A DNA stretch of 64,000 nucleotides, from positions 32,001-96,000 of IMG/VR virus record IMGVR_UViG_3300005805_000051, one strand, 5' to 3'. The notes under the pieces were generated by a model. It did no database searches and was not told the origin of the DNA. It was given only the letters and a program-made list of their open reading frames with translations. Position numbers and translations under genes: made by a program. Position 1 is the stretch's first letter; each line of letters starts with the position of its first letter. This document shows positions 29,215 to 57,485 of this stretch, piece by piece. This stretch comes from a virus.

Positions 29215-29523
29215 TTAACCAAGTTTATCCAATAGAAACGAATTATCTTTCAACAATCGCCGACGAGACATCTCTTCCAACAGTGCCAACTTTAAGGTCG
29301 GGGTCAATAGCGGCTTTACGGATTCGTAATCCCGCTGGTAATATTCACAGAGTTCCAGAATCGCCTCGAAGTGCGATATCTGGTACCGTTGCACAACGGT
29401 CAGCACCACTTTAGTAAACGCTTCCGGGGTAATCTCGGCATCTTGTTCCGGCAAGCGTTCATCTGCGTGTTGGAACATTTGTCCGAAACTACGAACCGTG
29501 AGCGTAGAATTTGTGCTGTCCAT
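29215..29523 (-). CDS. gp33: Late promoter transcription co-activator
   Basis: ISHFEAILELCE..ESVKPLLTPTLK; adjacent to gp32. Confidence 0.7.
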   Translation of the reverse strand: MDSTNSTLTVRSFGQMFQHADERLPEQDAEITPEAFTKVVLTVVQRYQISHFEAILELCEYYQRDYESVKPLLTPTLKLALLEEMSRRRLLKDNSFLLDKLG

Positions 29524-30085
29524 ATGTCTTTACATGTTGTAACTGCTTTGACCACGCCGGCGAAATTGACACATGATGGAAGTGTGTGATGTTTTCGTAC
29601 GACTCCCGTAGTATAGCACGATTTTGAAGAAATGTTTTAGCCATGTCGATATATTTTTGTGGTGGCACACGACGCCACTTCGCATAATCGGCTGTCCATG
29701 AAAATTGTGCAGCTTGATAAACGACACCACAGACAGTGTGTGGATACGCATCAGACGACATCCGGTTGAAAACTACCGCCGCGACCGCCTCAATGCCTGC
29801 TACGGGTTCATATGCCGATTCAAAGAAAATATTTTGGGCAAGACACAACACTTCATTCGTGACCCGCTTCGGTCGCGTGACTTTTGCGCGTTTCACTGAC
29901 TTAACTTTTTCTGGCGTACTCCGCTGTAATGTGGCCGGACGAATTGCAATATGGTCGACAGGGGTGAATGTGTATACATTTTTCGGACGATTCCCGATGC
30001 CTTGACTTATGGCCATGACAATCAGAGTCAGGGCTAACCCTCGTGACGCCCAAATCCGAATCGACGATTCTCGTTTTCGTGCCAT
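29489..30085 (-). CDS. SleB-like cell wall hydrolase (Hydrolase_2) with N-terminal membrane anchor
   Basis: CLAQNIFFES..AVAAVVFNRM..YPHTVCGVVYQ..QFSW..GQHKFY; SD GAGGAG. Confidence 0.9.
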   Translation of the reverse strand: MARKRESSIRIWASRGLALTLIVMAISQGIGNRPKNVYTFTPVDHIAIRPATLQRSTPEKVKSVKRAKVTRPKRVTNEVLCLAQNIFFESAYEPVAGIEAVAAVVFNRMSSDAYPHTVCGVVYQAAQFSWTADYAKWRRVPPQKYIDMAKTFLQNRAILRESYENITHFHHVSISPAWSKQLQHVKTYGQHKFYAHGS

Positions 30086-30099
30086 TGCTCCTCGCTTGG

Positions 30100-30138
30100 A
30101 AAAAGAAAAACGCCGGTTTTGGGTCAGCGGAGCCGGCG
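30100..30138 (-). terminator. Intrinsic terminator downstream of the tmRNA
   Basis: CGCCGG..CCGGCG stem followed by TTTTTCTTTTT on the minus strand. Confidence 0.65.
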
Positions 30139-30139
30139 C

Positions 30140-30400
30140 GCTGTGATGATCACTTCTGTTGCAAGGTGGAACATCGAACCCCTGACTCATGAATGAGTCA
30201 AGTAGCTGCTAGGCAGCCATTGCGAACTGATAGGTGTCAGTTGCGAGTGTCTCTGTTTAACGTCAGCGACTTGACGATAGCCTCCATAGCTTTCTGCCGA
30301 TACTCTGTCGAATCCAAGTCACCCCCGTAAGTTTGAATGGTGGAGGTGGGCGGGTTCGAACCGCCGTCCAAAATATCCGAACGCTACTTCATCAGCTACA
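30140..30400 (-). ncRNA. ssrA: tmRNA, circularly permuted two-piece form; tag (A)ATDTYQFAMAA
   Basis: Acceptor piece ends GGCGGTTCGAACCCGCCCACCTCCACCA (to 30338). An 11-nt spacer precedes the coding piece GGGGGTGACTTGGATTCGAC (from 30326). G3-U70 pair present; tag ORF at 30244-30209. The outer ends are approximate. Confidence 0.9.
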
Positions 30401-30405
30401 TTCTG

Positions 30406-30411
30406 TATTTA
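30406..30411 (-). promoter_or_regulatory. T4-type late promoter box (TAAATA) driving the tmRNA
   Basis: Same (A/C)TAAATA box at 2145, 10359, 16067, 22772(+), 25691(+), 31180(+), 33483, 36282, 38737, 40724, 41422, 41746, 44188, 48763, 55979, 57586(+), 58597, 59941 and 62349, each just upstream of a gene start. Confidence 0.75.
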
Positions 30412-31158
30412 TGTCAACACCGTCTGTTGTACCTCGGCAAACCGTGCCACGCGTTCTTCTAGCAACGGGCGCCAGAGTTCAGCCGAAGATTCTTGCCAAA
30501 CCAACAGTTTCGGGCACAACTGTACAATCACGATGGTATCTATAGTACCACGACCCAACCATTCTGTCAACGCATCCGCATAAAATGTGGCTTGCAAGGC
30601 ATAGTTAGTCACCCGATTGTCCGTTTTGGGTTTTTTGCCAGTTTTAAAATCAATCACCGCAAGACGACCATCGGTCAGTTCCGCACAAATGTCCATGCGT
30701 CCAGCCACTTTATGACGCGTAGACATGATGCGTGACTCGGACAATAATACCGTGCGAATCCGCGCATTCAGCAGCGTTCCGATCGCCGCGGCCATCGGTG
30801 GGTCAGATGGGTCTTTCAAATATTTCCACAGAGGCTGCCCCGTGATGAAGGATTCGCAGAAATCATGCCAACGGGTACCGTTTCCCGCGGCGGTTTTGGT
30901 GACTCGATCCGCTTCCACTGCCCCGACGCGTTTCCGCCACTTACGAAGTGCCGATTGCCCTTCATCATCAGTCGCACTCAGCAGTGTCGTAATCGACGGA
31001 TAGCGTTCTCCTTCGCTCGTATACCAACGTTTCCCGTCGTGATAGGTTTCACTCAAGGTGACGCGCAACGGTTGAGGGTCGTAGGTAATCGTCGACGCAG
31101 GAATGTCAGCCGCATTCCAAAACGGATATTCATGAACATGCCATTCCTGTTGTGTCAT
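30409..31158 (-). CDS. PD-(D/E)XK exonuclease
   Basis: YPSITTLL, WRKRVG..EADR, GTRWH, AGRMD..VIDFKT, YALQATFYA. Confidence 0.85.
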   Translation of the reverse strand: MTQQEWHVHEYPFWNAADIPASTITYDPQPLRVTLSETYHDGKRWYTSEGERYPSITTLLSATDDEGQSALRKWRKRVGAVEADRVTKTAAGNGTRWHDFCESFITGQPLWKYLKDPSDPPMAAAIGTLLNARIRTVLLSESRIMSTRHKVAGRMDICAELTDGRLAVIDFKTGKKPKTDNRVTNYALQATFYADALTEWLGRGTIDTIVIVQLCPKLLVWQESSAELWRPLLEERVARFAEVQQTVLT

Positions 31159-40726: not shown

Positions 40727-41353
40727 TTATCCTTTGGTTTCTTTGGCTTCCTTAGTTTCTCTCCAACGTCTCCATCGCTCCCGCATTTTTTCTCGCGCCC
40801 CCTCGCTGTGTTTTTTGCCTTTGAATGGATTGTTCGTTAGCATTCGTTGTCTATTCTTTTCAGTGAACGATTTAGGCATTTTTTTATTTCGCTGGCTTTC
40901 CGAACGACGAGCGCAGGCTTCCGGGGACATATCGTAGGTTCTGTTTCGGTTAGAAATAGATAGTCTCGCTCGATGTTCTTCTGTAAAGATACGGTTTTTG
41001 AGTTTTTCTCGTCGTTTTAATTCTGCATCAGGGCGTGTTTTTAAATATTGCTGGAGGTATAACCAGCCATGCTCACCCCCATCCGTCATATTGTAGCCTA
41101 ATTCTTTTGTATTGAGGGTAGCTATCCAATACATTTCACGGTCATTTACTTCTTCGGGGGTTGTCTCTTCTAAAACGGTATGAGTAAAAACCTCAGGGCC
41201 GTATTTACGAATGGCCTTATGAAGATATGCAGTAGAACCTTGACGCGCAGATTTACAATGTCCCGACCATCGTTCATGTAGTTTAGAACGCGTCTGCCCG
41301 ACGTATTGTTTTCCGTTGACAGTATTGGTGAGAAGATAGATAATAGCAGACAT
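40727..41353 (-). mobile_element. Free-standing GIY-YIG homing endonuclease with NUMOD3-like motifs
   Basis: IIYLLTNTVNGKQYVGQT..H..AIRKYG..E..GYNMTDGG; GKKHSE..REKM; AT-richer than flanks. Confidence 0.9.
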
Positions 41354-57393: not shown

Positions 57394-57485
57394 TGGTCCT
57401 CTCACTTGGATTCGAACCAAGACTACGCCCACATCTAGGGCTGCGGCGGTATAAGCACCGTGTGCTGCCGTTACACTATGAGAGG
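57394..57485 (-). tRNA. tRNA with UAU anticodon (nominally Ile) and a 22-nt variable arm
   Basis: CCTCTCA/TGAGAGG-A-CCA; loop CT-TAT-AC; variable stem GCCC/GGGC; TTCGAAT. Confidence 0.85.

Follow-up and report, generated by a model that had tools for sequence, protein, structure and literature searches.

A divergent two-piece tmRNA gene carried by a T4-like myovirus

Genes encoding transfer-messenger RNA (tmRNA) have been reported in 402 of 18,146 phage genomes, and 53 of the 133 unique phage tmRNA structures described are of the two-piece (circularly permuted) kind, 50 of these 53 originating from marine or aquatic phages (Buchholz et al. 2022, PMC9004378). The tabulated carriers of two-piece genes include T4-like cyanophages, HTVC008M, Mosig and the phiCbK group, amongst others, and in phage Melnitz the tmRNA gene is located directly upstream of the late-transcription coactivator gene (PMC9004378). 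Across all gene forms, the tmRNA database paper lists 79 unique tmRNA sequences from bacteriophages, and the Rfam model RF04321 was built there (PMC11915505). Here we describe a gene of this kind on the minus strand at approximately 30399-30100 of a 64,000-nucleotide (nt) stretch, hereafter the window, which comprises bases 32001-96000 of the IMG/VR virus record IMGVR_UViG_3300005805_000051 (108,995 bases; approximately 60% complete according to CheckV).

The original prediction of this gene, made from the sequence, had implied that it was novel. Phage two-piece tmRNAs have already been published and are found in isolated T4-like phages (PMC9004378), and the window gene is thus a divergent addition to a described group. 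We confirmed permuted tmRNAs in HTVC008M (alpha type), in the cyanophages S-CRM01 and S-SSM7 (cyano type) and in the Stenotrophomonas phage DLP6 (beta type), with RF04321 scores of 78-91 bits for the first three. The reading that we favour, at a probability of about 0.8, is that the window gene encodes a two-piece tmRNA which selection maintains in the genome of a T4-like myovirus, where it would serve ordinary trans-translation together with host SmpB late in infection.

Identity and architecture of the gene

ARAGORN called a permuted tmRNA at 30118-30430 (minus strand) with the tag ATDTYQFAMAA followed by a stop codon. The model RF04321 (tmRNA_permuted) matched 30399-30209 (minus strand) over its full length (1-213) with 93.9 bits (E 7e-17), relative to a gathering cut-off of 47 bits, whereas the standard one-piece tmRNA model reached just 36 bits. 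Both detectors had been suggested as checks on the original prediction, and on their evidence the gene is a genuine phage-borne, circularly permuted tmRNA. The permuted order can be read directly, with an acceptor half that ends in CCA (30340-30338), then 11 nt, and then GGGGGUG from position 30326. The elements of the RNA are listed below in the order of the minus strand.

30338..30399, minus strand: acceptor piece, 62 nt (Rfam alignment, RNAalifold on 11 relatives, family conservation)
30399-30394, minus strand: GUAGCU, first strand of the 5'-terminal helix (Rfam pairing)
30386-30383, minus strand: UAGC, first strand of the middle helix (Rfam pairing)
30377-30369, minus strand: P2a strand of the acceptor piece (Rfam and compensatory changes)
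30365-30349, minus strand: T arm, a stem of 5 base pairs (bp), GGCGG/CCGCC, with the 7-nt loop UUCGAAC (read from the sequence)
30348-30342, minus strand: acceptor 3' strand CACCUCC (read from the sequence)
30341, minus strand: discriminator A (read from the sequence)
30340-30338, minus strand: encoded CCA (read from the sequence)
30327..30337, minus strand: intervening segment UUCAAACUUAC, 11 nt, between the CCA and G1 of the acceptor 5' strand
30245..30326, minus strand: 5' part of the coding piece (Rfam consensus pairs)
30326-30320, minus strand: acceptor 5' strand GGGGGUG (seven pairs, including G3.U70)
30307-30299, minus strand: P2a strand of the coding piece (Rfam consensus pairs)
30290-30287, minus strand: GCUA, partner strand of the middle helix (Rfam consensus pairs)
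30282-30277, minus strand: GGCUAU, partner strand of the 5'-terminal helix (Rfam consensus pairs)
30276-30261, minus strand: PK1 hairpin (modelled by Rfam)
30209..30244, minus strand: tag reading frame, GCA to UAG (ARAGORN)
30183..30200, minus strand: post-stop hairpin, 7-bp stem with a 4-nt loop (compensatory pairs; minimum-energy fold)
30145..30182, minus strand: putative PK2-like domain (short pairings in the window)
30100..30139, minus strand: terminator-like 3' end, a 7-bp G+C-rich stem with a 16-nt loop, then UUUUUCUUUUU

The acceptor stem with its G3-U70 pair, the T arm, the CCA, the 11-nt segment, the tag, the hairpin and the terminator had all been placed correctly in the original prediction. 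Its estimate of gene size, approximately 260 nt, fell short of the 296-300 nt that separate the predicted RNA start from the terminator, and its description of the gene as compact did not hold, as Accumulibacter-type genes of the Rhodocyclaceae have near-equal ARAGORN geometry (306 nt versus 313 nt in the window, with the tag starting at 183 versus 187). The intervening segment falls near the lower limit of the 4-188 nt observed in other permuted tmRNAs and, judging from its position between the two pieces, is expected to be removed on maturation. In several other phage two-piece tmRNAs, which we label L089 (3138-3502), L061 and L042/L086, intervening segments of 141-188 nt leave room for small genes or RNA elements.

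An RNAalifold analysis of the window gene with ten phage and bacterial relatives recovered the acceptor stem, the T arm and P2a, with double-sided changes in 11 of 19 pairs and a G.U at the third acceptor pair in all 11 aligned sequences. Two further helices between the pieces had been proposed originally. The first, CAGAGUAUC with GAUAUUUUG (30377-30369 with 30307-30299), corresponds to P2a in the Rfam models, and compensatory changes in relatives provide covariation support for it. The second, GUAGCUG (30399-30393) with CAGCUAC (30208-30202), is present as a complementarity, but its interpretation as an inter-piece helix is unsupported, because 10 of 11 relatives maintain a competing 5'-terminal helix, the sequences of which covary. 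In both Rfam models the 5' end is paired with the segment directly before the PK1 hairpin (30399-30394 with 30282-30277), and this 6-bp helix is found at the same place in those relatives with at least eight different sequence pairs, including GGCUGU/ACAGCC, UGCUGU/ACAGCA, AUUGCC/GGUGAU and GGUCGU/GCGGCC. Moreover, G30399 is an A elsewhere in the window gene's family, which converts a G.U to an A-U pair in the conserved helix and abolishes the seventh pair of the helix originally proposed.

Helix length and stability were of little help here. In a table of helices within narrow windows the shuffled sequences also scored high (4.7 versus 5.8 bp), so that the argument for the 5'-terminal helix rests on its conserved position and covarying sequence, not on its length. 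A comparison of duplex energies between the 5' end and the pre-PK1 and post-stop segments, conducted on sequences other than the window family, did not discriminate between the two partners, because G+C-rich sequences form strong random duplexes. A post-stop complement of the RNA 5' end was observed only in the window family (30202-30208 of the window, minus strand), in DLP6 (L258) and in one Dechloromonas-type sequence (L128), where it duplicates the 5'-end partner located before PK1; it could represent an alternative pairing or chance.

The minimum-energy folds had z values of -1.2 (3' part) and -2.3 (whole RNA), which are not informative. The post-stop hairpin is contained within the minimum-energy fold, and between the window and the relatives L090 and L112 it shows a C-G to U-A and an A-U to C-G exchange with pairing kept. 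The best-conserved part of the coding piece is the domain between this hairpin and the terminator, which was absent from the original prediction. Its short pairings (GGGG 30182-30179 with UUCC 30171-30168, and GAUG 30175-30172 with CAUC 30148-30145), together with a loop holding the conserved GCAACAGAAG, suggest that this stretch folds as an H-type pseudoknot. The same layout of a G-rich strand, a stem, a pyrimidine strand, a loop with AACAGAA and a further stem is readable by eye in other phage, Accumulibacter-type beta and bacterial alpha-type sequences, with differing stem sequences.

Conservation within the family and lineage of the gene

Pattern scans of viral and metagenome contigs retrieved the relatives L090 (=L252), L112 (=L250), L247, L254 and L251, and the window gene accordingly belongs to a small family known solely from metagenomes. 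Nucleotide searches of 50,697 phage records, both with the gene and with the surrounding 14 kb, gave no match. A search of viral contigs with a protein pattern of the neighbouring exonuclease retrieved no relative, and the exact gene signature was found in none of 185,579 bacterial species genomes.

The RNA of the window is 93-95% identical to those of L090, L112, L254 and L251, whilst the proteins encoded by neighbouring genes in L090 are only 53% (exonuclease), 66% (cell-wall hydrolase) and 75% (gp32) identical to their window counterparts. In the family, 20 of the 21 columns upstream of the RNA were variable, compared with 2 of 62 within the acceptor piece and 6 of 82 within the 5' part of the coding piece; the intervening segment had 4 variable columns out of 11 and the post-tag domain (PK2) 2 out of 42, and conservation set in sharply at 30398/30399. 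This excess of RNA identity over that of the neighbouring proteins, the coincidence of conservation with the RNA boundaries and the compensatory pairs in the hairpin demonstrate purifying selection on the gene as an RNA. The higher variability of the intervening segment would fit its removal on maturation.

One relative, L251 (2173-2573; metagenome contig Ga0194119_10026785), carries a tandem duplication of approximately 106 nt that spans the acceptor piece, the intervening segment and roughly the first 29 nt of the coding piece. The duplication junction forms a contiguous, standard-order tRNA-like domain without a tag region, which scored 72.5 bits with the one-piece model RF00023. The unit may have arisen in assembly, or it may be a genuine domain-only RNA of the kind carried by mycobacteriophage DS6A, whose tRNA-like-domain-only RNA has been described as an inhibitor (PMC4131195). 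Both the DS6A precedent and the domain-only unit in L251 lend something to the idea that the phage RNA acts as a competitor, soaking up host SmpB or blocking host trans-translation. In the window gene, nonetheless, the tag frame is complete from resume codon to stop codon and its end resembles a degron; also retained is the highly conserved post-tag domain, for which a decoy would have no need, and we judge a competitor role to be very unlikely.

With regard to lineage, the best of the three lineage-specific models was beta_tmRNA (RF01850), which outscored the alpha (RF01849) and cyano (RF01851) models in clan competition and aligned end to end (1-331), albeit with large deletions. Its score of 67.5 bits was below the cut-off, and the gene fell under all three lineage-specific Rfam thresholds (alpha_tmRNA 50, cyano_tmRNA 70 and beta_tmRNA 84 bits). 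The bacterial alpha type has a GGGGGCG acceptor strand and a reduced T loop; the T loop of the window gene is the canonical UUCGAAC, as opposed to a GGCGGUA-type loop in the three bacterial alpha-type sequences inspected. Within the bacterial species genomes searched, the permuted signature with a GGGGGUG-type acceptor was found mainly in Rhodocyclaceae and other betaproteobacterial records, with tags of the form ANDE(R/Q)FA(L/M/I/V)AA. In BLAST comparisons of the window gene with bacterial genes, only the tRNA-like domain aligned.

A phylogeny placing the gene among known permuted lineages had been proposed as a check, and was inferred from 24 phage sequences together with 25 alpha-type and 27 beta-type sequences from bacteria. 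Each of the two bacterial types formed a clade, and the phage sequences fell between these clades. The window family was recovered as a group with 100/99 support on a long branch, but the tree did not settle its position; in approximately unbiased (AU) tests neither a grouping on the beta side (p = 0.78) nor one with the bacterial alpha sequences (p = 0.68) was rejected. The parts of the gene follow the same order as in the alpha and beta types and hence nothing points to a separate permutation event, so that, with the end-to-end beta_tmRNA alignment, the possibly independent permutation raised originally finds no support.

The gene might alternatively be a passenger without a role for the phage, on a cassette recently exchanged among phages or captured from a bacterium. 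The downstream context of the cassette differs in L254 and L251, and high RNA identity beside diverged neighbours would also be compatible with recent phage-to-phage transfer. Capture from a bacterium accords poorly with the absence of the signature from the bacterial genomes searched and with a long branch that joins neither bacterial clade. Conservation that ends exactly at the RNA ends, compensatory stem changes and a phage late-promoter box directly upstream likewise tell against a passenger, which we therefore hold to be very unlikely.

Phage context, expression and proposed role

The record is that of a T4-like myovirus, and the window encodes gp32, baseplate wedge and hub proteins, a tail lysozyme, a gp33-like coactivator and a PD-(D/E)XK exonuclease. 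Its nearest isolated relatives are distant, with gp32 being 48-55% identical to those of Synechococcus phages and 48.6% identical to that of DLP6, and the exonuclease at most 36% identical to those of isolated phages. The features surrounding the tmRNA gene are as follows.

30409..31158, minus strand: PD-(D/E)XK exonuclease gene, upstream neighbour (phrog_298 2e-46, PF12705)
30406..30413, minus strand: predicted T4-type late-promoter box CATAAATA (motif enrichment upstream of open reading frames)
29489..30085, minus strand: cell-wall hydrolase gene, downstream neighbour (PF07486 4e-22)
29215-29523: gp33-like late-transcription coactivator gene

The gene order of exonuclease, tmRNA, hydrolase, gp33-like protein and gp32 is identical in L090. 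The hydrolase start was placed at the ATG at 30085, which follows a GAGGAG ribosome-binding site, because the L090 homologue (66% identical) begins after the terminator; a 233-codon version of this open reading frame reaching 30190 overlaps the tmRNA and was dismissed as an artefact. Two further candidates were rejected. An attachment-site remnant was discounted as the gene is complete and no integrase match was found in the 108,995-base record, and a glutamine riboswitch, as in Melnitz, was discounted since no Rfam match was obtained even at E values up to 10. Elsewhere, the window encodes a long tRNA of approximately 90 nt with the anticodon UAU and a long extra arm (57394-57485, minus strand), called as Ile by ARAGORN. 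Its homologue in DLP6 is the annotated 92-nt tRNA-Ile-TAT, and a full-length alignment of the two has 56 invariant columns out of 95.

The original prediction had given the gene a promoter of its own, which was borne out by a late-type box directly upstream of the RNA and by the enrichment of its motif. The CATAAATA box overlaps the TAA stop codon of the exonuclease gene, and the predicted RNA start (approximately 30399/30400) is 6-7 nt past it. Six of the 11 ATAAATA sites in the window are located within 30 nt upstream of an open reading frame start, relative to 0.65 at random positions, with none of 5000 random draws reaching six; ATAAATA and TAAATAG ranked first and second of 7,488 7-mers by this enrichment. 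Given this enrichment and the presence of the gp33-like gene, CATAAATA is predicted to be a T4-type late promoter, the mark of which is a TATAAATA-like box shortly before the start in a phage with the gp33/gp55 system. The exonuclease gene of L090 likewise has a CATAAATA box behind it. A further ATAAATA box (40730) occurs at the end of a GIY-YIG/homing-endonuclease-like gene (40727-41353, minus strand; phrog_314 8.5e-41), ahead of the next gene.

The terminator that had also been claimed corresponds to a terminator-like 7-bp stem (30139-30133 with 30116-30110) enclosing a 16-nt loop and followed by a U tract extending to 30100. The stem is part of the minimum-energy fold, and both stem and U run are retained in L254 and L251 despite different downstream DNA.

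The tag runs from the resume codon GCA (30244-30242) to the stop codon UAG (30211-30209). Its GCA-ACU-GAC start aligns with the GCA-AAC-GAU/GAC of related phage tmRNAs, such that ACU (Thr) stands in for the usual Asn codon. The relatives show a synonymous GAC/GAU change at codon 3, and within the family tag positions 4 and 7 vary whilst A-M-A-A is kept. Amongst the 136 other unique permuted tmRNAs that we collected, 127 have tags that begin with AND and none begins with ATD, whereas 11 tags end in AMAA and nine in FAMAA. The description of the tag as unusual thus applies to its front half, ATDTYQ, and not to its FAMAA end, which is ordinary and is the part that proteases read.

The atypical front half raises the possibility that the RNA is a working tmRNA that alters the fate of tagged proteins, with ATDTYQ evading the host protease adaptor so that degradation is slowed or redirected although rescue continues. 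The rarity of such a start and the variability of positions 4 and 7 would be in keeping with this, and selective tagging has been raised as a possibility (PMC9004378). The FAMAA end, on the other hand, is the native tag ending of those nine permuted tmRNAs, with ANDE[RQ]FAMAA occurring in Rhodocyclaceae-type genomes, and the main degron would therefore be intact; we regard an altered fate as unlikely. A broader version, in which the family would be a long-resident, phage-adapted lineage that is timed by its late promoter and whose ATDTYQ alters the handover of rescued proteins to host proteases, appears similarly improbable. The same applies to the wider idea, prompted by the place of the phage sequences between the bacterial alpha and beta clades in the tree, that phages may have carried the permuted form between bacterial classes.

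Ordinary trans-translation, the reading that we prefer, would proceed as follows. Late transcription from approximately 30399, past the CATAAATA box, to the terminator near 30100 would yield a precursor of approximately 296 nt. RNase P would cut 5' of G30326 and 3' trimming would remove the 11-nt segment back to the CCA, leaving an acceptor piece of 62 nt and a coding piece of some 220 nt, which would be held together by the acceptor stem, P2a, the middle helix and the 5'-terminal helix. The host alanyl-tRNA synthetase, recognizing G3.U70 and the discriminator A73, would charge the RNA, and host SmpB and EF-Tu would deliver it to ribosomes stalled on broken mRNAs. Translation would then resume at the GCA at 30244, add ATDTYQFAMAA, the end of which matches native bacterial degrons, and stop at the UAG. 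The phage would probably benefit by keeping ribosomes available late in infection, a stage at which damaged mRNAs are expected to build up and host ssrA expression to break down.

Several observations sit less comfortably with this scheme. As originally noted for the window, no smpB match was found, and this was also the case for the whole record (approximately 60% complete), meaning that function of the tmRNA would depend on host SmpB. The second stem of PK1 was not recognized, although the modelled hairpin at 30276-30261 is present. A scan for consensus terminators made no call at the unusually large loop, because the scan allows loops of only 3-8 nt, and the putative terminator accordingly lies outside that consensus. 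The window has no leader and its promoter abuts the RNA, whereas in the closest relatives the CATAAATA box is located approximately 55 nt ahead of the tmRNA, with some 48 nt of leader in between. In L090 (2463-2520), and also in L112, L254 and L251, this leader contains a mini-frame of start and stop codon (GGAG-ATG-TAA) as well as a hairpin of approximately 10 bp that is conserved. The 5' end in those relatives would thus be set by processing, or else the leader is retained, and the RNA 5' end may not be fixed by the promoter alone. Finally, L112 and L247 have AGA at the place of the GCA resume codon, which makes the resume point uncertain across the family; either their resume codon specifies a residue other than alanine or translation resumes at another point. 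In these two sequences (L112:1151-1463 and L247:4226-4538) ARAGORN starts the tag two codons later (DQYQFAMAA).

Comparison with described permuted tmRNAs

The window gene adds a divergent, metagenome-only family to the phage two-piece tmRNAs. This family is detected only by the merged RF04321 model and ARAGORN, and older annotation pipelines would miss it because it falls short of all three lineage-specific Rfam cut-offs. The locus opens no new question, and isolated phages with a tmRNA are at least as well placed to reveal what a phage tmRNA does.

The beta tmRNAs of bacteria (RF01850; Rhodocyclaceae such as Accumulibacter, Dechloromonas and Thauera) have an acceptor stem, GGGGGUG/CACCUCC, identical to that of the window gene, a canonical T loop and similar ARAGORN geometry. 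Further resemblances are a hairpin at the 3' end and, behind the tag, a probable pseudoknot whose loop is of the AACAGAA type. The FAMAA tag end is shared as well, with nearly the same codons. The window gene differs from them in its extra post-stop hairpin and in a tag beginning with ATDTYQ rather than ANDE(R/Q); its RF01850 score of 67.5 bits is short of 84, and it is not nested in the bacterial clade.

Amongst isolated phages, the T4-like cyanophages S-CRM01 and S-SSM7 have permuted tmRNAs, and their proteins are the nearest isolated relatives of those of the window phage. Their genes pass the cyano_tmRNA cut-off (74.3 and 109.4 bits, respectively), whereas the best model for the window gene is that of the beta type. 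Stenotrophomonas phage vB_SmaS-DLP_6 (KU682439.2), also an isolated T4-like phage, shares with the window a permuted tmRNA, the covarying 5'-terminal helix and the odd tRNA(UAU). The DLP6 tmRNA, at 102838-103059 (L258:1501-1722), scored 136.8 bits with RF04321 and 103.7 bits with RF01850 and is unannotated in the GenBank record. Unlike the window gene it is not next to gp32 but just upstream of a tRNA cluster, and it has an intervening segment of 31 nt and the tag ANDDSFAPMAIAA, as compared with 11 nt and ATDTYQFAMAA. For the aquatic T4-like Methylophilales phage Melnitz a glutamine riboswitch has been reported, of which none was found here even with loose thresholds, and the window gene departs from those of both Melnitz and HTVC008M in an intervening segment of only 11 nt and a tag that starts with ATD.

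The Pelagibacter phage HTVC008M passes the alpha_tmRNA model (83.8 bits against a cut-off of 50), whereas the window gene passes no lineage-specific model. The two have similar RF04321 scores (90.6 and 93.9 bits, respectively) and a post-tag domain with an AACAGAA loop, and HTVC008M likewise has its permuted tmRNA in a T4-like genome between an exonuclease gene and gp33. Taken together, conservation above that of the neighbouring genes, the late-promoter box and this shared exonuclease/gp33 position make a stronger case for a late-infection trans-translation RNA in T4-like phages.

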